From contig JAYKHY010000039.1 in the NCBI GenBank assembly GCA_035285025.1, forward strand, positions 21,018 through 85,017: a stretch of 64,000 nt of DNA. The letters are read 5' to 3'. Made by a program: the position numbers and the translations under genes. The notes below the pieces were generated by a model that saw only the letters and a program-made list of their open reading frames with translations, did not search any database and was not told the DNA's origin. The DNA comes from Vampirovibrionales bacterium. Lineage in GTDB: Bacteria; Cyanobacteriota; Vampirovibrionia; Vampirovibrionales; JAJTHC01. Positions 32,625 to 44,791 of the stretch are shown one piece after another. The stretch's first letter is position 1. Every line of letters starts with the position of its first letter.

Positions 32625-33662
32625 ATGCCCCTCACAAAATCCTATTTAGATAAAATGGGCGAGCAACTACGCCGTGGCCCAAGCTCGCCCAATTTTGAAG
32701 AGGCCTACGAACAGCTCAAGCTATACCGACAAGCTTTTGCCACCCCGATGACTCGTGTAAACAATCGCGCTAGAGATATTATCAAACAATATAGATTGTC
32801 AAGTACCAATGCACCTGCCATTGTGGCTCAACGGCATAAACGTCTGCAATCTATTGTTTTTAAACTAAATCGTTTTGAAACCACTAACCTAAGCCAGATG
32901 CAGGATATAGGCGGAGTCAGGGTTGTTTTGCCCAATTTGTTTAAAGTACGACTATTTGAACACTACTTCCCTGGGCGGTCGGTGATTGAAATTAAGCGTA
33001 AGAAAGACTACCTTGCAGAATCCAAAAATGATGGGTACAGAAGCCTTCATTTAATGCTGGAGTATCCTAACAAGCTTGAAACTATATATGCTTCCGAAAC
33101 TGTTTCCATTGAGCTCCAAGTAAGAACCAGACTACAGCATTGCTGGGCGACTGCCGTCGAGATGGCGGGCATGATGAACCTACGCTCTTACAAACAGGGC
33201 GATTGGGATGAAGACTGGCAAAAGTTTTTTTTACTCCTCTCGAGATATTTTTATTATAAAGAGCAAGACTTGGAGATGAAGCCACAAGAATTGCAAGCTT
33301 TAAAAGCAATTACGAACGAACTATCAGTTATTGAGAAGTTGCAGGCAACCAGTGCCATTTATTCGAGAGTAGAAGACATTGTAAACTTTAAGAAAGACGT
33401 CCGCTCTATTGCAAAAACGCCAAAATTATTTGTCCTTGAAATTTCTCACGTTAAAAGAAAACTTAACTTTTACCCATTTGAGGAATTAAGCGATGCCCTT
33501 AAAACTCTGAGCATTTTAGAATTTAAGTATCAAAATGTGAATGAAGGACAAGCTATTTTGGCCGATGTCAATGAAATAAAACTCCTGAAGCAGGCCTACC
33601 CAAACTTTTTTATGGATACAAGTGTGGTTGTCAGAGAACTCAAACAAATTTTAAAAAATTGA
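32625..33662 (+). CDS. RelA/SpoT (alarmone synthetase-fold) nucleotidyltransferase domain protein with a cysteine-free C-terminal extension. It is AT-rich and a candidate toxSAS/CapRel-like protein.
   Basis: 345 aa. RelA_SpoT synthetase motifs DIGGVRVV, GYRSLHL and IELQVRT (EIQIRT-like), then a roughly 135-145 aa C-terminal region with no Cys. The gene is visibly far more AT-rich than argF and trmD on either side. It starts 3 nt after the argF stop. Confidence 0.6.
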   Translation: MPLTKSYLDKMGEQLRRGPSSPNFEEAYEQLKLYRQAFATPMTRVNNRARDIIKQYRLSSTNAPAIVAQRHKRLQSIVFKLNRFETTNLSQMQDIGGVRVVLPNLFKVRLFEHYFPGRSVIEIKRKKDYLAESKNDGYRSLHLMLEYPNKLETIYASETVSIELQVRTRLQHCWATAVEMAGMMNLRSYKQGDWDEDWQKFFLLLSRYFYYKEQDLEMKPQELQALKAITNELSVIEKLQATSAIYSRVEDIVNFKKDVRSIAKTPKLFVLEISHVKRKLNFYPFEELSDALKTLSILEFKYQNVNEGQAILADVNEIKLLKQAYPNFFMDTSVVVRELKQILKN

Positions 33663-34384: not shown

Positions 34385-35425
34385 CTATAGCCAGCGCCGC
34401 CGCTTGAACAACAGCAACATGCTCAGGGCCAGCGCCAGCATCACGCCCAGAATCATCCAAAAGCCAAACGGGTGATTCAGCAGCGGCATGTGCTTAAAAT
34501 TCATGCCATATAAACCCGTCACCACGTTCAAGGGGAGTAGCATTGTAGTAAGCATCGTTAAAAACAGCACAATCTGGTTGACTTTGGTGCCGTTAAGCGA
34601 CAGCTGAATCGTAAGCGCCTCGCGCAGGTTTTGTTGATACTGATCCGACAACTCGACCATCCGCAGCAGGTGATCGTAAACATCTTTAAAATAGCGCGCC
34701 TGTTGCTCGTCAATAAACTCCAGGCTGGCGTGGCTTAGTTGGTAAAACACCTGCTGGTTTCGCACCGAAATGCGCCGCAAGAGCTGGAGCTGACGCGTCA
34801 TTTTCAAGTACGCGGCCGCTGCGTGGCGCTTCAGGTTACTGGCAAATAACTGCTGTTGCAGCCCGTCCAGCCGATCTTCAAAATAATCTAGTACGGGCGC
34901 TTGTAAGTCCACAAATCGATCCAGAATCTCGTAGGCTAACGTGGCCACGCCCTGCCGAATTTGACTATTACGGTTAGCGACGTGCTTGAGGGTTACATTT
35001 ACGGCCTCGGCGGGGTGCCGATGATGGGTGACTAAAAACCGCTCGCCAATGTAGCAGTTAAGTTGTACCACCTCGAGCTTTTGGGGTACCACGCCGTCGG
35101 CCTCGTCGGTGTTAGGCTCTGGGCCCGCAAAAGGCTCGTCTAGCATTTGCTCGGCCCTGCGCAAGGCTTTAACCAGCACAAAATGGTACGCTTCGAATGT
35201 TTCGACCTTAGGGAGTTGGCGCGGGCTCAGGCAGTCTTCAAGGGTTAGCGGGTCTAACTCAAGCGCTTCGCCAATGGTCTGAAGTTCGGCAGGGTCATCG
35301 GTTTGGCAATCGATCCAAAGGTGCGTATGCGCGTCGGCTAAAAGGGCAGGCAGCGCCGCTAGCCCCGCAGGCGTGCTGTAGGTTTGCGTTTGGGTGTTAT
35401 ACGCGTGAATTTGGAGCAAGAACAA
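34385..35425 (-). CDS. corA: Magnesium/cobalt transporter CorA
   Basis: 346 aa. Two C-terminal TM helices carry the signature YGMNF (GMN motif). The first start in the stop-to-stop frame is TTG, so the true start is uncertain. Confidence 0.85.
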   Translation of the reverse strand: MFLLQIHAYNTQTQTYSTPAGLAALPALLADAHTHLWIDCQTDDPAELQTIGEALELDPLTLEDCLSPRQLPKVETFEAYHFVLVKALRRAEQMLDEPFAGPEPNTDEADGVVPQKLEVVQLNCYIGERFLVTHHRHPAEAVNVTLKHVANRNSQIRQGVATLAYEILDRFVDLQAPVLDYFEDRLDGLQQQLFASNLKRHAAAAYLKMTRQLQLLRRISVRNQQVFYQLSHASLEFIDEQQARYFKDVYDHLLRMVELSDQYQQNLREALTIQLSLNGTKVNQIVLFLTMLTTMLLPLNVVTGLYGMNFKHMPLLNHPFGFWMILGVMLALALSMLLLFKRRRWL

Positions 35426-35992
35426 TTATCTTTCAGAAGATTTACCCATAATTTTTTGACACGAATCATTCACGTGAAGATTCTCTAGTTTCCATTGAAA
35501 GTCTATCCACTGGAAAACCAATTCTATACCATCAAGCTTTGCTTTCATTTGATTAAGTGAAGTAAAAGAAAGCCGCTTTGCCATAACTACAAAGTCGGGA
35601 TGCTTTTGGGTAGTGCTTTCTTTTGTGTTTTGAGAAGAGAGCTGGTTTGAGTGTTCTCTTATCGCAAATTGAAGTCCTTCAGGGCTAACATAAGAATCAA
35701 CAAGTGAATTTAACATATTTTGCATTAAAGGCATGAACATTAATGCAAAAGGATTATCTTTGATGTCTGGATCGTTGTTATAACTTTCCATAATACAATT
35801 TGTCATCTTTGACTTTAAAGATTTTCTAATTTTTTCAAAATTAATGCGTTCATCGTCAGCGCTCAACTTTTGTTGATAAATGTCTTGGAACAGAAAATAA
35901 ACTGATGTATAAGCATGACCAAAATAAAGGCCTATCAAAATAAAACCAATAAGGAACAAGTTTAATGGTTTGAAGATGGCTTTTACTTTCAT
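35426..35992 (-). CDS. AT-rich hypothetical membrane-anchored protein
   Basis: 188 aa with an N-terminal TM helix (LNLFLIGFILIGLYFGHAY), AAGGG about 10 nt upstream, and no recognised domain. The gene is strikingly AT-rich. Its stop codon directly abuts the corA start. Confidence 0.4.
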   Translation of the reverse strand: MKVKAIFKPLNLFLIGFILIGLYFGHAYTSVYFLFQDIYQQKLSADDERINFEKIRKSLKSKMTNCIMESYNNDPDIKDNPFALMFMPLMQNMLNSLVDSYVSPEGLQFAIREHSNQLSSQNTKESTTQKHPDFVVMAKRLSFTSLNQMKAKLDGIELVFQWIDFQWKLENLHVNDSCQKIMGKSSER

Positions 35993-36043
35993 CTTACGAG
36001 ACCCTTCATATGTATTTTAATAGCTTAAATTGCCCGTAAACCT

Positions 36044-37642
36044 TTATTTAGTAGCATTTATTAACCTTACCGCGTAAATCCCCACGCCGATGGCAAACCA
36101 CGCCAGCGTCAGCACCCAGCACAGCGCGCCCAACCCGGCAGACATCACCGCGCAACCCAGAATCCCCAACCACGGAATCACCGGGCCAAACGGCACCGTA
36201 AACGGCCTGTGCCGGCTTGGCTGCGTCTTGCGTAAAATCAGCACCGCCGCGCACACAACGGCATAAATCGCAAGCGTACCCAGATTACACATTTCGGCCA
36301 ACAGGTTAATCGGCAACAGCGCGCCACCTACGGCCACCAGCACGCCCGCGGCAATTGTGGCCACGTGCGGCGTTGCAAATTTAGGGTGAATTTTGGCCCA
36401 GCTTTTCGGGAAAAACCCGTCGCGCGCCACAGCGTAAAACACGCGCACCGTCCCAAGCTGAAACACCAGTAAAACCGACGTGAGCGCCACCAGCGTCCCC
36501 AGACCAATCACCCACACCGCCCACGGATACCCCAACGCTTGCAACGTGCCCATGACCGGGGCCGACACGTTAATCTGGTTCAAGGGCGTAATCGCGGTGA
36601 CGGCAATCGCCACCAAGCAGTATAAAACGGTACACACCGCAAGCGCGCCCGCAATGCCAATCGGCAAATCGCGCTGGGGGTTCTTGCTTTCTTCCGCCAC
36701 GGTCGAAACGGCATCAAAACCAATGTAGGCAAAAAAGATCAGCGCGGCCCCGCCCAGTATGCCTTTAAAACCACCGGGGGCAAACGTTTGCCAACCGCCC
36801 GAAAACCAGTTTTGCGCCCAGACGTCCATATGGCCGTTAAACAGGTAATACAACCCCACGGCGGCAAACAGCAGAATCACGCCCGCTTTGGTCAGCACCA
36901 TAGCAGTGGCCATGCGCGCGGATTCCGAAATGCCCAGCACCAACAACCACGTTGCGGCAATCATAATCAGAATGCCCGGCAGGTTAAATCCGGCTTGTAC
37001 CAGCAAGTAATACTGCTGCGCCACAAACGGCAGCTTGAACGGCAAGACGTTCAGCACACCGCTAGCAGGCACGTCTGACAGCGCAGATACGGTATCGAGC
37101 GTGTTGCGCGTCATCCAGTCGGGCAAGGCAATGTTGAAGGTTTGCTGCAGAAACGCCTTGAGCGTACCCGTCCAGCCGACCACCACCGCCATGTTGCCCA
37201 CGGCGTATTCCAGCACCAACGCCCAGGCCACCAGCCATGCCGGAAGTTCGCCCATAGTAGCCAGCGCGTAACTGAACGACGAGCCCGACAACGGCAACAT
37301 CGCCGCCAGTTCTGCAAAACACAGCGCGCAAAACCCGCTAATAATAGCCGTCATCACAAACGAGAGCAAAATGGCTGGGCCTGCACCAACTTGCGTGGCA
37401 CTACCCACGGCGGCTGCCCCGGTAATCACAAACACGCCCGCGCCAATCATGGCACCAATGCCAAAAATCACCAGATCAAACGCGCCCAGGCTTCGTTTTA
37501 ACGCAGGTTGCTGCGCGCTCGCAGATTCATTGGCGGCCTGTTCCGCCAGCAAGTCTTCAATTGGGCGCGGCTGGAACATGCTTTGCATCAGCGATTTAGA
37601 TCCAGACTCGGCCGCAGGCGGCTTTAAGGTAGGCACCGGCAT
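36044..37642 (-). CDS. APC-family amino acid permease
   Basis: 532 aa with about 12 TM helices. The N-terminal signature LKRSLGAFDLVIFGIGAMIGAGVFV is typical of amino-acid/polyamine/organocation transporters. Confidence 0.8.
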   Translation of the reverse strand: MPVPTLKPPAAESGSKSLMQSMFQPRPIEDLLAEQAANESASAQQPALKRSLGAFDLVIFGIGAMIGAGVFVITGAAAVGSATQVGAGPAILLSFVMTAIISGFCALCFAELAAMLPLSGSSFSYALATMGELPAWLVAWALVLEYAVGNMAVVVGWTGTLKAFLQQTFNIALPDWMTRNTLDTVSALSDVPASGVLNVLPFKLPFVAQQYYLLVQAGFNLPGILIMIAATWLLVLGISESARMATAMVLTKAGVILLFAAVGLYYLFNGHMDVWAQNWFSGGWQTFAPGGFKGILGGAALIFFAYIGFDAVSTVAEESKNPQRDLPIGIAGALAVCTVLYCLVAIAVTAITPLNQINVSAPVMGTLQALGYPWAVWVIGLGTLVALTSVLLVFQLGTVRVFYAVARDGFFPKSWAKIHPKFATPHVATIAAGVLVAVGGALLPINLLAEMCNLGTLAIYAVVCAAVLILRKTQPSRHRPFTVPFGPVIPWLGILGCAVMSAGLGALCWVLTLAWFAIGVGIYAVRLINATK

Positions 37643-37852
37643 TGGTTAAAACTCCCAGCAAACAGTCAACAGTCAAAGGCTCATTTTAGGATGTTTTAAA
37701 AACAAGAAATTTGTAAAACCGGAGCCCCGAGCCTAATGGGATTCATTATGGCCAATCGGTGGCATTTTTAAAACGAACCTGGCGCAAAAAGATCAACTTC
37801 TTAACGCAGACGAATCAGCTGAATTTGCCTGTTAAACATCAAATAACACGGG

Positions 37853-39028
37853 CTAAAGCAGGCCTGTACGAATATAAGTGCGCGGTAATCGTACTCGCAA
37901 GGCGCACATAAGCTCGTAGGCAATCGTGTCGTCATTTAAGGCCTTAAGCCAGGTTTCCAGAGAAGGCTCGCCCATTTCGGGGCGACCCAGCAGCGTGACC
38001 GTATCGCCCAGCTGTACCTGCGGCACGGCAGACACATCCAGCATGAATTGGTCCATGGTAATTAACCCCACCTGCGCAACAGGCATCCCTTGCAACACGG
38101 CGCTTAATTTTCCCGAAAGCCGGCGCGGCAAACCATCTGCATAGCCTAGTGGTAACGTCGCCAATCGGGTTTCCGGCTGCGTGGTGGCGTAAGTATGCCC
38201 GTAACTTACGCCTTCGCCAAATGGTAGCGTTTGCAAGTGCGCCACACGCGCCTTTAGCCCCATAACGGGGCGCAAGGTTTCGCCCGCAGGCGCAGGTCCG
38301 TAGCCAAACAGGGGCAACCCAATCCGAACCATGTTCGTATTCAGCGCATCGTCCATGGCAGCGTTTAAAATCACGCCCGTAGAGTTACTGATATGCCTAA
38401 CCGACGGCAGCGGCAAGCTCATCGCCTGAATTTCGGAGAGTACATGCTGCCAGCGTTCAAGCTGCTGGCGGGTAATGCCAGTGTGTTCGGGCGCGGCCAG
38501 ATGCGTCATTAACCCGATGACCTCGAGCCCGTTTTGTTGGCATGCCTGCGCGTAAAATCTAGCCGCCGCCTGCCACGGAAGACCAATGCGGTGCATGCCG
38601 GTATCAATTTTAAGATGCACCCGCGCAGGTAACATCAAGGTGCCTGCGTTTTGGAAACAATTGGCCAGCGCCTCCAGATGATGCGCATCAAAAATCGTCA
38701 GCTGGATCTGTTGCCGGATTGCCAAATCCATGGCCCAATCTGGCGTGGGGCCCAGCACAAGCAGCGGCGCATTACTGTTGGCTTCCCTAATTTGCAGCGC
38801 TTCATCGGCCGAGGCCACCCCAAACTGCGTAAACCCCGCCGATAAAAGCGTCGGCAAGGTCATCACCGCCCCGTGGCCGTAAGCATCCGCCTTAATAACC
38901 GCCATGGCGGCGTGTTGTTGCGGAATCACGCGCCGGATGCATCGCGCGTTTTGCTCCAGCGCATCCAAATCGACGGTCAACCAGGCATCACGGCGCGTTG
39001 GATGCGGCAAGTTTCGAGAGAGTTTCAT
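37853..39028 (-). CDS. alr: Alanine racemase
   Basis: PLP-lysine motif AVIKADAYGHGA (V[IV]KAxAYGHG) and the C-terminal VSMDQ-like ITMDQFMLDV. ATG at 39028 (MKLSRN...). Confidence 0.8.
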   Translation of the reverse strand: MKLSRNLPHPTRRDAWLTVDLDALEQNARCIRRVIPQQHAAMAVIKADAYGHGAVMTLPTLLSAGFTQFGVASADEALQIREANSNAPLLVLGPTPDWAMDLAIRQQIQLTIFDAHHLEALANCFQNAGTLMLPARVHLKIDTGMHRIGLPWQAAARFYAQACQQNGLEVIGLMTHLAAPEHTGITRQQLERWQHVLSEIQAMSLPLPSVRHISNSTGVILNAAMDDALNTNMVRIGLPLFGYGPAPAGETLRPVMGLKARVAHLQTLPFGEGVSYGHTYATTQPETRLATLPLGYADGLPRRLSGKLSAVLQGMPVAQVGLITMDQFMLDVSAVPQVQLGDTVTLLGRPEMGEPSLETWLKALNDDTIAYELMCALRVRLPRTYIRTGLL

Positions 39029-39059
39029 AGCCTGTGTTAATGCTACGATAAAGCACGCT

Positions 39060-40220
39060 ATGCCACTAGACCCCAACTTAGAACAACGCCTGTCGCAGTC
39101 GCTGAACGTGCTACAGTTTCATCGAGAAACGCCCGATGCGCCGGATGCGCCTGATGCATCAAAAGCATCCGGCCTTGCTGCAACTAACAGCAGAGATGCA
39201 CCTACTGCCGCGCACGCACCATTTAATCCGCCCAACGTTGCTGTAGTGGGCTGCGGGCGCTGGGGCAAAAACCTGATTCGGAACTTTGAGAGCCTGGGTG
39301 CGCTCGCCGCCGTGGTAGACGCGCAGCCCGAAAATATTCGAGCCGCATATGATCTTTCAGAGCGAGTCCTGACAGCGCAAGCCGGATTCCCCTCGCTCGA
39401 TGCGCTATTAGCCTCAGATATCGGCAAAACACTTTCGGGCGTTGCCATCGCAACCCCTACACAAACGCACTTCAAGCTTGCGCATCAAGCGCTAGAAGCG
39501 GGCCTGAACGTCTACGTCGAAAAACCCATGGCCACCACCACCGAAGACGTGCAGACGCTCCAGAAACTGGCCCAGCTGCAAAATAAACAGCTTATGGTCG
39601 GCCACCTGCTGCTGTATCATCCGGCCGTGAGGCGCCTGAGGCAACTTATAGTCGATGAACAAGCCCTGGGCCCTGTTTTACACATCGAAAGCACCCGCCT
39701 TAACACCAATGCGTTTCGCCCCGACGAGAGCGTCATCTGGGATCTAGCCCCGCACGATCTCTCGATGATGGCCTACGTCCTGAACGCGACGCCCGCCGCC
39801 TTAACGCACGTTCGGGTCGAGCGCACGCAGGCCAATCTGCCCCAGGGCGATACCAAACCCGATATCGCGTGGCTCGATGTCGCATTCCAGACCGCAAACG
39901 GCCAGCGCATTAACGGCCATGCGCACGTAAGTTGGGCGCACCCCAAAAAGCATGTTCAACTGGTCGTCCGGGGAGAACACCGCACCGCTGTGCTCGATGA
40001 CACGCAAATCGAGGGCAAGCTGCAAGTGTTTAATAACGCCAAACCGCACCAACCCGACTGGCAAGAAGCTATTGAATACCTGGCCATTGAGCCCCTGCGG
40101 CTAGAATGCCAGCATTACCTAAACGTAATGAGCCATGCCAGCAAAATCCAACCCCTGACTGGCGCAGACCACGCGTTACCCATCGTCGCGATTTTACAAG
40201 AGGCCCATGCTCGCATATGA
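39060..40220 (+). CDS. Gfo/Idh/MocA-family NAD(P)-dependent oxidoreductase
   Basis: Start MPLDPN at 39060. Rossmann motif VAVVGCGRWGKN, EKP motif VYVEKPMA, and a C-terminal alpha/beta dimerisation domain. It is divergent from alr. Confidence 0.7.
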   Translation: MPLDPNLEQRLSQSLNVLQFHRETPDAPDAPDASKASGLAATNSRDAPTAAHAPFNPPNVAVVGCGRWGKNLIRNFESLGALAAVVDAQPENIRAAYDLSERVLTAQAGFPSLDALLASDIGKTLSGVAIATPTQTHFKLAHQALEAGLNVYVEKPMATTTEDVQTLQKLAQLQNKQLMVGHLLLYHPAVRRLRQLIVDEQALGPVLHIESTRLNTNAFRPDESVIWDLAPHDLSMMAYVLNATPAALTHVRVERTQANLPQGDTKPDIAWLDVAFQTANGQRINGHAHVSWAHPKKHVQLVVRGEHRTAVLDDTQIEGKLQVFNNAKPHQPDWQEAIEYLAIEPLRLECQHYLNVMSHASKIQPLTGADHALPIVAILQEAHARI

Positions 40221-41029
40221 AGCTCATCTCGTGGAACGTCAACGGTATTCGGGCGGTGCACAAAAAAGGCTTTTTATCGTTTCTGGAAGCCGAACAACCC
40301 GACGTGCTGGGCCTGCAAGAAACCAAAATTAGCGCCGAGCAACTACTGCCCGCGCTTGTGGCCCCGTTGGGCTATACCAGTGTGTTTGCACACGCACAGC
40401 GTAAAGGCTATAGCGGTACGGCCTTGTTTTTTAAACCCGGCGTCACGCCGCTCCAAACCGGCATTGGTATGGGCCCGCATTCGCCCGGCAACGGCCTGCA
40501 AGACTGCGAACGCTTTGACGCCGAAGGCCGCATAACCTGGGCCGAGTTTGACGCCTTCTGGCTGTACACGGTGTATTTTCCGAACGGGAAAAAAGATGCG
40601 TTACGCTTGCAGTACAAACTGGATTTTTACGAAGCCTTCTGGCAAATGATCGAAACACAGCGCAAAGTGTCGGGCAAGCCCGTGATATTTTGCGGAGACG
40701 TGAACACCGCGCACCAACCGATTGACCTGGCTCGGCCCAAAGAGAACGAGAAAGTCTCGGGCTTCCTGCCCATCGAACGCGCCTGGCTCGATAAAATCAC
40801 GGACGCGGGTTACATCGATACGCTCAGGGTGTTTCACCCCGAGGTGCCCGCGCTTTACACGTGGTGGGATCAACTGACTCGCGCCCGCGATCGCAACGTA
40901 GGCTGGCGCATTGATTACTTTTTTACCAGCCCGGACGCCCGCCCGCTGCTTAAAGACGCTAACACGCTACCAATGGTAATGGGCTCAGATCATTGCCCCA
41001 TCAGCCTGACGCTGGCATTAGGCTCGTAA
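40217..41029 (+). CDS. xthA: Exodeoxyribonuclease III
   Basis: ATG overlaps the upstream stop (ATGA). Contains MKLISWNVNGIRA, LQETK and the C-terminal SDHCPI motifs of the ExoIII/APE family. Confidence 0.85.
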   Translation: MKLISWNVNGIRAVHKKGFLSFLEAEQPDVLGLQETKISAEQLLPALVAPLGYTSVFAHAQRKGYSGTALFFKPGVTPLQTGIGMGPHSPGNGLQDCERFDAEGRITWAEFDAFWLYTVYFPNGKKDALRLQYKLDFYEAFWQMIETQRKVSGKPVIFCGDVNTAHQPIDLARPKENEKVSGFLPIERAWLDKITDAGYIDTLRVFHPEVPALYTWWDQLTRARDRNVGWRIDYFFTSPDARPLLKDANTLPMVMGSDHCPISLTLALGS

Positions 41030-41059
41030 CGCTTAACGATTTAAACCCCTTCGCTGCCT

Positions 41060-41916
41060 TCAAGCGTTTAATAAATACCGTGTCGCATCAATGTACTTGG
41101 TCTCACCTTCGCGAGAAGTTACCTTGAAGGCCAAATCGTGTTCTTTGGGGCACTGTAAATACGCCTCAAATAAACCATTAAACCCTTGCTGCAATTGCTT
41201 GCAGGCATCGTAAAGCTTATCGCGGCTTAACGGTTCGCCCGTACCGCCATACTCCAATGAAGATAATCGTCTGGTTAACGCCTTGGGCAGGCGCATCGTC
41301 TCGCCAGGGCCAAACGTAGCATCCAATAAATATCGACCGCCAGAAATCAAACGGTCAAAATGATCTTCAGAATCATTAAAGGGCTTTAACGCCTCAGAAA
41401 CATGTTTTTCGTAATCCCCATTCGCATTTTGCGGGCGCCAAACTAACTGAACCGTATTCCCTGCTTTAGCGGCTTTAAATAATAGTTTTTTAACAGCGCG
41501 GCGCGTTTTAACAACCTAACACTTCCGGATTCCACTCCGACGGCAGTTAAAAAAGGTTTAGATAGTCCGTGATTTGGGTTTAACTTTGCAGGTAAATTCA
41601 TTGCGGGTCTATCCGCATCGAGCGTTTGCGCAACAGTAAAATATTCTGCAAGCGTAAATGGGTTTTTAATGTGGGCAGATTTTGCGTCCGTAGCATTTAA
41701 AGGATTAAGATTTTGCGGCCTGACCTTAAAGGGAATAATTGAATTTGCAAACTAATTTAACGCCCAATTAGGCCTATTGCGATCTATATCCGGCTTCTGC
41801 GGCGTAGGATTATGAGCAGAGACACCATTACCATTCTTTGGCTTTGCGTTAGAGGCGCTAGAAGCGTTCGTATTTTTTTGATTTAAAGTTAGCCAGCGTA
41901 TCGGACGAACAATCAT
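41060..41916 (-). pseudogene. Decayed gene of unknown function in an AT-rich non-coding stretch
   Basis: Reading the minus strand from ATG 41916: 54 codons, then an in-frame TAG (41752-41754), then about 100 open codons. A +1 frame shift near 41490-41520 then joins the approximately 150-codon 3' ORF ending at 41060. This 3' ORF is the track's 41060..41350 TTG ORF extended upstream. It has no usable start codon. The translation is not recognisable (...GGRYLLDATFGPGETMRLPKAL...YIDATRYLLNA). Confidence 0.4.
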
Positions 41917-42304
41917 ATTTAACTCTCATTGAAACAACACGAATTATAATTTTTAAAACAGCTTTATCCGCAACAACATCATCAGGACTTTTTAGTAACA
42001 CTCATTCAAATCACACATCCCTACTTAACATTCACGATGCGCAACAGTTAAAAACAGCGTTTCATCGTGGATGGTTATCCAAAAATTAATCACCCGTTAC
42101 AAACCCAGAAATCCAACAAAAAATAAATGATTCCCAAACCCGGCAAACGTCTGTAATTTAACCCTATAGCACTCAGCAAAAACCTCAGGGAAAACTTAAA
42201 GCATCAAAAGCTTTAAAAATGCGCCCAAACAGTCCTAAAATAGAACTTATAGAACTTATTGTTGCTAACAGACTAAGTGTCTAGAATACAATTTTATCTC
42301 ATTT

Positions 42305-43045
42305 TTGTCGAGATACACGCTTTACGTAATGACCACCCCATCTTACGCTACCCACCTTGAGCCGCAGCACGTTGCCGCACTGTTTAACACCATCGCGCCG
42401 CGGTACGATTTACTTAACGATGTCATCTCGTTTGGCATGCACCGCAGCTGGAAGCGGCGCGCGTGCGCGATGCTAAACCTTGCGCCCGGGCAACCCGGAC
42501 AAACCGTGCTTGATATTTGTACAGGCACCGGCGATCTTGCGGGCGAGCTGCTACGGCTTGTTGGCCCCAAAGGACAGGTAGTTGGCATAGATTTTTCGTC
42601 GCAAATGCTTGCGGTGGCGCAGGCACGATTTGCAGGCCAGCCCAACGTCCGGTTTATTCAAGCCGATGCCTTGCAACTGCCGTTTGAACCAGAAACCTTT
42701 GATGGGGCCATTATTTCGTTCGGGCTGCGGAATCTGGCAAGCGCAGATGCGGGCCTGCGAGCATTTGCCCGCGTACTCAAGCCGGGCGCAAAACTGGTTT
42801 GTCTGGATACCGTGCCGGGCGGCGGCCCGCCGGGGTTTGGGTTTTACTTCAGGCATATTATGCCTAAGGTTGGCACGCTGTTAGGGGCCGATCACGCCTC
42901 GTACAACTATTTAAACGCCTCGACCGAACGATTTTTACCGCCGCCGCAACTAGCCGAACTTTTTACAACCTGTGGTTTTGCCCAACCCCAGGTTAAATTC
43001 ACCGGCTTCGGCGCGGCCGCCATCGTCTGCGGCACAAGACTTTAG
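42305..43045 (+). CDS. ubiE: Demethylmenaquinone/ubiquinone biosynthesis C-methyltransferase UbiE/MenG
   Basis: UbiE signature YDLLNDVISFGMHRSWKR (YDxMNDxxSxGxHRxWK) and SAM motif VLDICTGTGD. The start is possibly at the second Met (MTTPSY). Confidence 0.8.
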   Translation: MSRYTLYVMTTPSYATHLEPQHVAALFNTIAPRYDLLNDVISFGMHRSWKRRACAMLNLAPGQPGQTVLDICTGTGDLAGELLRLVGPKGQVVGIDFSSQMLAVAQARFAGQPNVRFIQADALQLPFEPETFDGAIISFGLRNLASADAGLRAFARVLKPGAKLVCLDTVPGGGPPGFGFYFRHIMPKVGTLLGADHASYNYLNASTERFLPPPQLAELFTTCGFAQPQVKFTGFGAAAIVCGTRL

Positions 43046-43060
43046 GAAGCTTCAGCCCCA

Positions 43061-44791
43061 ATGCTACCCCCTCACGTCTCGATACCCATTGACCCTGATT
43101 TTCCGAAGACGCTCCCAGCGCTGCTTGTAGCCCGGTCGCAAGCCACACCCGAACAACCGTTTCTGTTTTTCCCGGAGCGCTCGGCGCAAACAAACCAGAT
43201 TACCTATGCGCAGTTGGCTCGCCAGTGTTTTGCCTTTGCCAACTGGTTAACGGGGCAAAAATTTCATGGGCAAGGCCAGCCAACCGCCACGACCGTTGGA
43301 CTTTTGATGCCGAACATACCCGAATTTTTGACGGGTTATTGGGGCGCAATGTGCGCGGGCTGTATCGCGGTGCCCATCAACACCTTGCTAAAATCGCCCG
43401 AGGTGCAATTTATTCTGGATAACGCGCAATGCAAGGTAGTTTTAACCACACGGCAATTTTTACCCATCCTTGCGCCCTGCCTGCCTCAGTTACCCCACCT
43501 TAAAACGCTTATCATTGCCGACGATCCAACCGTAGATGCGGGCCTGAGTGACGATGCTAACCTGAATCCTGTAAACATCCACGCACCCCAACAAGCCGAA
43601 ACCTCAAACTTGAGCGACGTGCTGGATTTGGCGAACGTCACCAGTCACAGCAATCTGCCCGAGTTTGCTCGCGCGCTTGCCCCCCAAATTACTCCCGAGA
43701 CTGTGGCCGAAATCATCTATACCTCGGGCACAACAGGTAATCCCAAAGGCGTCATGCTCACGCACCAAAACCTGATTACGGATGCCTATTACATTAAAAC
43801 CTGGTTCTCGCTCACGCCGCACAGCCGAATGCTCTGCATCTTGCCCCTGTTTCACGTCAACGGCGAGGTCGTCACGATGATGACGCCACTGGTGGCCGGC
43901 AGCAGCGTTGTGTTGCACCGGCAATTCAGCGCCAGCCGATTTTGGCAAGATATCGCGCAGTATCAGGTCGAATTGTTCAGCACGGTGCCGACGATTCTGA
44001 GCATTTTAATCAAAGCCAGACCCGACGCTTTTCAAAAACCCGACTCGCTGCGCCTGGGCATCTGCGGGGCCGCGCCCTTACCCCCCGAGGTGCAAACCCA
44101 ATTCGAGGCCTGCTTTAATGTGCCCATTATCGAAGGTTACGGACTCTCCGAAACCACCTGCTACAGCAGCTTTAACCCGCCCGATATCGCACGCCGCAAA
44201 CTGGGCTCCATTGGCCTTGCCGTGGGCAACCAGATGGCCATTGTGAACACGGCTGGCCAGGTTTTACCATCGGGGCAAATTGGCGAAATCGCGATACGCG
44301 GCGAAAACGTAATGCTGGGCTACTTTAACAACCCAGACGCCACACAAAAAGCCCTTTTACTCAATCTTTACAGCGCAAGTAACACGCCAGACACCCAACA
44401 ACATTACCCCGGGCCGTGGTTTTTAAGCGGCGACTTGGGCGATGTTGACGACGCCGGCTTTTTCAGGATTTTAGGCCGCAGCAAAGAGATGATTATTCGG
44501 GGCGGCGAAAATATATACCCCAAAGAGGTGGATGATTGCCTGTATCTGCACCCAGCGGTAGAGCACGCGGCTACAGTGGGTATCGAAGATACTAAATACG
44601 GCGAAACCGTTAAAAGTTTTGTAGTGCTTAAACCCGGGTTTGAGCCCACCGAAGCCTTAGCCGAAACGTTAATGCAATGGACGCGCACGCGAATGGCCGA
44701 TTTTAAATGCCCCGAAGCCATCGCGTTTGTGGACGAAATCCCGAAGGGGCCCACAGGTAAATTGCTGCGGCGAGCGCTAAAAACGCTCTAA
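43061..44791 (+). CDS. AMP-dependent synthetase/ligase (acyl-CoA synthetase family)
   Basis: 576 aa. AMP-binding signature IIYTSGTTGNPKGVMLTHQNL, the GYGLSET block and the C-terminal PKGPTGKLLRRAL. Confidence 0.75.
   Translation: MLPPHVSIPIDPDFPKTLPALLVARSQATPEQPFLFFPERSAQTNQITYAQLARQCFAFANWLTGQKFHGQGQPTATTVGLLMPNIPEFLTGYWGAMCAGCIAVPINTLLKSPEVQFILDNAQCKVVLTTRQFLPILAPCLPQLPHLKTLIIADDPTVDAGLSDDANLNPVNIHAPQQAETSNLSDVLDLANVTSHSNLPEFARALAPQITPETVAEIIYTSGTTGNPKGVMLTHQNLITDAYYIKTWFSLTPHSRMLCILPLFHVNGEVVTMMTPLVAGSSVVLHRQFSASRFWQDIAQYQVELFSTVPTILSILIKARPDAFQKPDSLRLGICGAAPLPPEVQTQFEACFNVPIIEGYGLSETTCYSSFNPPDIARRKLGSIGLAVGNQMAIVNTAGQVLPSGQIGEIAIRGENVMLGYFNNPDATQKALLLNLYSASNTPDTQQHYPGPWFLSGDLGDVDDAGFFRILGRSKEMIIRGGENIYPKEVDDCLYLHPAVEHAATVGIEDTKYGETVKSFVVLKPGFEPTEALAETLMQWTRTRMADFKCPEAIAFVDEIPKGPTGKLLRRALKTL

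Follow-up and report, generated by a model that had tools for sequence, protein, structure and literature searches.

An interrupted minus-strand frame between xthA and ubiE of a Vampirovibrionales genome, possibly a pseudogene of an orphan gene

The xthA-ubiE gap and its surroundings

The locus lies in a 64-kb stretch, called the window here, of an 87,273-bp contig from a metagenome-assembled genome of an uncultured member of the Vampirovibrionales. It occupies the gap between xthA (exodeoxyribonuclease III, 40217-41029, plus strand, matched to MEB3245394.1 by exact look-up), whose stop is at 41029, and ubiE (UbiE/MenG methyltransferase, 42329-43045, plus strand), whose ATG is at 42329, and these are the genes that a first-pass annotation of the DNA had named on either side. 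An adenylate-forming enzyme (MEB3245397.1, 43061-44791, plus strand) follows, and the neighbours in general are housekeeping genes, namely OTCase, trmD, CorA, a permease, alr, an oxidoreductase, xthA, ubiE, the adenylate-forming enzyme, and a methyltransferase. That no intact ORF lies between xthA and ubiE had been stated before, and six-frame translation together with the ORF list bears this out, the longest ORF in the gap being 96 aa. What the gap does contain is an orphan frame on the minus strand, divergent from ubiE and convergent with xthA, that is gene-like and carries exactly one in-frame TAG and one frameshift.

The region had been described as much more AT-rich than its surroundings. 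Its GC content of 0.36-0.48 is indeed below that of the flanking genes (about 0.54-0.60), but the description does not hold against the other spacers, since all 30-odd intergenic spacers in the window have a GC content of 0.32-0.48, compared with 0.54 in coding sequence, and the spacer GC of this region, 0.39, is typical of them. AT-richness is thus not special to this region. Where all spacers are AT-rich, AT-richness alone is no sign of foreign DNA, so the argument from an AT-rich pocket to foreign DNA carries no weight here, and the proposal of a foreign gene found no support in a tRNA, integrase, repeat boundary, or other hallmark of an island.

No tRNA gene was detected in the 64-kb window, and no Rfam family reached the gathering score anywhere in it. 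At the region itself, Rfam returned a lone tracrRNA match at chance level (E = 0.85), and identity as a non-coding RNA was rejected on this basis. Repeats in the region are limited to chance-sized ones of 13-15 nt, no second copy of the region exists in the 64-kb window, and no integrase, transposase, flanking direct repeats, or other hallmarks of mobility were found at the locus. An IS or repeat element was likewise rejected, since terminal inverted repeats are lacking and the region occurs just once in the window.

Some other parts of the window are also low in GC. A 345-aa protein with a RelA_SpoT domain (32625-33662, plus strand; PF04607, E = 1.3e-18), similar to small alarmone synthetases, is encoded between ornithine/aspartate carbamoyltransferase and trmD with a GC content of 0.40, compared with a coding mean of 0.54; this atypical composition suggests a foreign origin for the gene, and it is conceivable that the product is a toxSAS-type toxin. 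A 188-aa DUF2939 protein (35426-35992, minus strand), adjoining CorA and an amino-acid permease, has the lowest GC content of the long ORFs of the window (0.326). Spacers of 0.8-1.4 kb also occur elsewhere in the window. Another AT-rich gap, of 1.36 kb and GC 0.42, extends from 18301 to 19659; it contains a 78-aa SecG-like membrane ORF (19035-19271, plus strand), which a 90-aa cut-off would miss, and elsewhere in this gap no ORF exceeds 76 aa and Rfam gives no match.

Anatomy and coding statistics of the interrupted frame

Read on the minus strand, the frame opens at an ATG (41916-41914) that is preceded, 6 nt to its 5' side, by an SD-like GAGAG (41923..41927). Further upstream of this putative start lies a perfect -10-like hexamer, TATAAT (41943..41948, minus strand, read from the sequence), which has no good -35 element, is absent from the promoter-scan list, and could be a chance occurrence in AT-rich DNA. 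Neither of the two internal candidates for a start (ATG 41601, TTG 41350) has an SD-like motif or TATAAT comparable to that of ATG 41916. A divergent spacer (41917..42328) with a GC content of about 0.36 separates the orphan start from the ATG of ubiE at 42329, and in it promoter-like hexamers face ubiE at 42212-42241 and 42265-42292.

From ATG 41916 the frame is open for 54 codons, which form an N-terminal segment (41755..41916, minus strand; the ATG and 53 codons, MIVRPIRWLTLNQKNTNASS...NRPNWALN) that is of low complexity and rich in N, P, K, and A. An in-frame TAG at codon 55 (41752..41754, minus strand) ends it according to six-frame translation. Beyond this TAG, the same frame is open for 102 further codons up to a second TAG at 41445-41443, as the first-pass annotation had seen, with about 100 codons given there. 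The middle segment (41488..41751, minus strand) belongs to this part, and its first canonical start is ATG 41601.

A second minus-strand frame provides 151 open codons from 41515 to a TGA at 41062-41060, in agreement with the roughly 150 codons noted earlier, and corresponds to a C-terminal segment (41063..41515, minus strand) with a predicted alpha/beta domain. No ATG, GTG, or TTG is found in its first 55 codons. Its last 96 codons, from a TTG, are annotated as the hypothetical protein MEB3245395.1 (VKJ06_05350, 41060..41350, minus strand), which is the only gene annotated by NCBI in the region and forms a singleton cluster by exact look-up.

The overlap of these frames spans 24 codons (41443-41515), and as both are open together only there, the frame change must sit in it. 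The shift is -1, as if a single nucleotide had been deleted, and not the +1 shift near 41490-41520 that had been proposed. The sole homopolymer in the overlap is an A6 run (41491-41486) that forms part of the canonical -1 slippery heptamer A_AAA_AAC (41485..41491, minus strand; TTA AAA AAC in the upstream frame), and this is the most likely location of the change. Joined at the A6 run, the frames amount to 285 codons, which replaces the earlier estimate of about 305.

The window segment from 35153 to 43109 is 100% identical to the 7,957-bp Logan contig SRR13425446_706371, which includes the TAG at codon 55, so that the TAG and the frameshift are not peculiar to one assembler. Both lesions are reproducible across the two assemblies, which may share reads.

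The openness of the frames was compared with dinucleotide-preserving shuffles of the sequence (n = 2000). An open frame of at least 151 codons somewhere in the region appeared in 49 of the 2000 shuffles (p ~0.025), and a 157-codon stretch with at most one stop within 41443-41916 in 4 of them (p ~0.002), while the longest open frame in shuffles of the region averaged 95 codons. In the other long spacers of the window, the longest open frames reach 46-99 codons. As both open stretches share a strand and adjoin directly, they are jointly unlikely to have arisen by chance; the open frames exceed chance, each piece alone being only moderately significant.

Codon usage was scored as log-odds, with 36 long ORFs of the window as the training set. 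At +0.17 bits per codon, the C-terminal frame lies near the bottom of the range of real genes, compared with -0.27 and -0.65 in the other two frames; its total is +25.6 bits against -41 and -97 in those frames and -47 to -54 on the opposite strand. The N-terminal segment has a weak score of -0.30 per codon, yet both other minus-strand frames score lower, and the middle segment is likewise negative with the proposed frame the best of three on its strand, one plus-strand frame scoring about equally well. Host-like and frame-specific codon usage is therefore confined to the C-terminal part. This part deviates from typical genes in its GC3 (0.44 compared with 0.61) and its GC content (0.48 compared with 0.54), an atypical composition that also marks two further genes of the window, both of them intact.

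The 49 long ORFs of the window end in TAA (29), TAG (17), or TGA (3), in a sequence of 52% GC, and the orphan frame thus closes with a stop that is rare there. Reassignment of TAG to a sense codon was ruled out, given the 17 of 49 long ORFs that end in it, and recoding of either TAG or TGA was ruled out by stop-codon usage and read-through translations. In the window TGA still terminates, with read-through leading to further stops or into an overlapping xthA start (ATGA). Since TAG is an ordinary stop here, the TAG at codon 55 truncates the protein.

Searches for relatives and predicted structure

The repaired 285-aa protein gave no match at E <= 1 in Pfam, NCBIfam, PHROGs, or PADLOC, and none better than E = 0.6 among PDB sequences. 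A word-indexed search of 5.8 billion proteins returned nothing, and when 1.84 billion representatives were searched exhaustively by phmmer, with the 151-aa C-terminal frame as the query, the one genuine match was its own annotated 96-aa fragment. Two other phmmer matches of this frame, in 11 and 4 stretches, are to proteins rich in repeats, and their summed scores were dismissed as artefacts. No relative was found among the GTDB species genomes, IMG/VR, and JGI metagenomes (back-translated scans with tblastn confirmation), nor did blastn and tblastn give a match in the phage and plasmid collections. On the evidence of these profile, sequence, and structure-based searches, the frame appears to belong to no recognisable family, in line with the first impression of the sequence. 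The suggestion that it might be a toxin, effector, or defence remnant found no backing in PADLOC or PHROGs, or in the fold matches. The first-pass annotation had staked its decayed gene on a homologue with an open frame turning up elsewhere, and no homologue of any kind was found.

Judging from sequence identity, the host lineage is isolated, with the flanking housekeeping proteins only about 54-56% identical to those of the closest genomes, from which the orphan gene is absent: the closest xthA relatives are at most 56% identical and mostly from unrelated phyla, and the closest UbiE relatives are at most 54% identical. In three of the nearest relatives, other genes surround ubiE, and nothing there resembles the orphan frame. 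In one of the three, GCA_046328025.1 (JAXLXK010000004.1, 3961-4839), whose UbiE is 51% identical, a 292-aa protein without a Pfam match is encoded divergently from ubiE. It matches the broken frame in position, orientation, and size, with no detectable sequence similarity to it (BLASTP E > 1), and its C-terminus looks receiver-domain-like by eye.

In single-sequence AF2 predictions, the C-terminal segment adopts a compact alpha/beta topology (pLDDT 56.7, pTM 0.52), and the middle segment is mostly unstructured (pTM 0.19). A predicted helix that ends the middle segment runs on into the helix that opens the C-terminal segment ('...SVRLLKRAALLK|KLLFKAAKAG...'), and a helix and strand upstream of TTG 41350 (residues 2-28 of 151) are modelled within the fold. 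Fold searches gave only weak, generic matches and no homologue; the RbcS-like alpha+beta two-layer sandwich and the YfbM (DUF1877) fold are counted among the closest known folds.

Possible origins of the interrupted frame

We give about an even chance to the reading that the locus is a young pseudogene of a lineage-specific (orphan) gene that formerly encoded about 285 aa. The N-terminal half of the protein once encoded on the minus strand, about 140 aa long, would have been of low complexity and probably disordered, and an alpha/beta domain of about 145 aa would have followed at the C-terminus. One lesion would be the nonsense TAG at codon 55, and the other a 1-nt deletion in the A-run (A7 to A6, 41491-41486) that puts the C-terminal domain in the -1 frame. 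Homopolymers are the usual site of 1-nt indels, and the frame change coincides with one. We infer that the three pieces formerly made up one gene with this domain layout, and we likewise take the lesions to be mutations, not features. A single former gene is supported by the small number of lesions, only two, by the retained start signals, by the helix predicted across the junction, and by the 55 start-less codons that open the C-terminal frame, which are expected if translation originally entered from upstream. The stop depletion relative to shuffles, the host-like codon usage of the C-terminal frame, and the identical second assembly also speak for this reading. Against it, no homologue was found from which to rebuild an intact ancestor, the codon scores of the N-terminal and middle segments are negative, each open frame taken singly reaches only p ~0.002-0.03, the two assemblies may share reads, the 96-aa gene called by NCBI could be functional, and the GC3 and the rare TGA are atypical for the genome.

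One alternative is that the real gene is only the short C-terminal ORF, which would give 96 aa when read from TTG 41350 and 78 aa when read from ATG 41296. The open frames upstream would then be a 5' leader, or the dead rest of an older, longer gene with an expressed tail. PGAP annotates exactly 41060-41350, the ORF is inside the C-terminal frame, which is the sole segment with a positive and frame-specific codon score, and a promoter-like site on the minus strand (41358-41329) overlaps the TTG start. This start, however, has no SD-like motif, the 55 open codons without a start upstream of it have a chance probability of about 0.05, the AF2 fold includes the helix and strand that precede it, and the 96-aa protein is a singleton without a homologue; we consider the short gene rather unlikely. 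Somewhat less probable still is that there was never a gene, and that chance open frames in a 1.25-kb AT-rich divergent spacer led to over-annotation of the 96-aa ORF. The lack of a homologue in the collections searched, the shuffles that already average a longest open frame of 95 codons, the other 0.8-1.4 kb spacers in the window, the negative codon scores of the N-terminal and middle parts, and the low AF2 confidence are all consistent with this. It would nevertheless require the joint stop depletion (p ~0.025 and ~0.002, same strand, abutting) to be an improbable coincidence, the +25.6 bits of the C-terminal frame stand against negative totals in all compared frames, the single-sequence pTM of 0.52 and the compact alpha/beta topology are protein-like, and the other long gaps reach only 46-99 open codons.

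The source is a metagenome-assembled genome and one lesion is in a homopolymer, so the gene could be intact in the organism, with the TAG, the missing A, or both being artefacts of sequencing, assembly, or consensus. We regard this as very unlikely, since both lesions recur in the separately built Logan contig (SRR13425446), whose 7,957 bp match without a difference. A consensus is also unlikely to contain two independent errors less than 270 bp apart, with one being a substitution that creates a stop, and the flanking genes have no frame problems. A marginally lower probability is assigned to a programmed -1 slip on A_AAA_AAC (41491-41485) that fuses the upstream ORF to the C-terminal domain, as in InsAB' of IS1, with ATG 41601 as the start of the upstream ORF, or ATG 41916 in the event of a leaky TAG. 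The layout is that of classic -1 PRF: the heptamer has the phase required in the zero frame (TTA AAA AAC, 41493-41485) and lies within the 24-codon overlap, with the zero-frame stop 14 codons downstream. In bacteria, A_AAA_AAC has been proven to work as a -1 PRF motif, and IS1 employs it without a known stimulator (PMC4066793). Against a programmed slip, the 121-nt RNA downstream shows no excess structure (-24.5 kcal/mol compared with a shuffle mean of -28.0, z = +1.08), there is no SD-like motif 8-14 nt upstream of the heptamer, ATG 41601 has no SD, the TAG at codon 55 is left unexplained, and a mutation in the A-run makes such a heptamer automatically. No relatives were found in which conservation of the motif could be compared, and there is no transposase homology and no terminal inverted repeat.

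The pseudogene reading can be set against the comparative definition. Pseudogenes are normally defined by comparison with an intact homologue. At this locus the disrupted frame in an otherwise gene-like stretch is present, with the TAG, the -1 shift, and the stop depletion, and homology to an intact gene elsewhere was found in none of the collections searched. The locus falls outside the comparative definition because nothing comparable has been sequenced, and since no homologue was found anywhere searched, its pseudogene status is argued from frame statistics, from which decay cannot be proven. Of the first-pass description as a decayed gene, the TAG and the frameshift in a gene-like frame are retained, and the intact ancestor is an extrapolation from these statistics. 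The locus resembles a unitary ORFan pseudogene in its nonsense codon and homopolymer frameshift within about 285 codons, the SD motif kept at the start site, the atypical GC3 and stop codon, and the intact housekeeping genes on both sides. It differs from ordinary pseudogenes, which are set against an intact homologue, in that it is assigned statistically and not comparatively. The locus is neither an IS element nor a known RNA, and nothing marks it as a defence gene, an effector, or a toxin.

The locus matters little beyond annotation, and its novelty is limited to unassigned sequence in a poorly sampled lineage. Homology-based pipelines are blind to pseudogenes of orphan genes, and NCBI annotated just the 96-aa tail here.

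The closest known parallels to the frameshift site are insA/insB' of IS1 and orfA/orfB of the IS3 family, which like this locus have an in-phase A_AAA_AAC in a short overlap of a zero-frame and a -1-frame ORF, the IS1 heptamer being identical (PMC4066793). Unlike these cassettes, the locus has no transposase or other Pfam/NCBIfam similarity, no terminal inverted repeats, no second copy in the 64-kb window, and no predicted downstream structure, and it has an extra TAG upstream. It would be a long shot to see in it the founding member of a new family, in which a non-mobile chromosomal gene of a deep-branching member of the Vampirovibrionales makes a fusion protein of about 20-31 kDa by -1 frameshifting without a stimulatory structure; the TAG at codon 55 would then be leaky, or it would terminate a leader peptide of 54 aa in its own right. 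A programmed frameshift here would add a rare case of non-mobile bacterial -1 PRF, and the evidence for it is weak. A 12-nt inverted repeat (41486-41497 and 41543-41554, TTTTTTAACAGC and GCAGTTAAAAAA; 92% complementary, with a loop of 45 nt) matches the A-run at the frameshift site to a T-run that lies upstream of it on the mRNA. Such pairing may be due to chance, and its effect would be to mask the slippery site, not to stimulate slippage from downstream.
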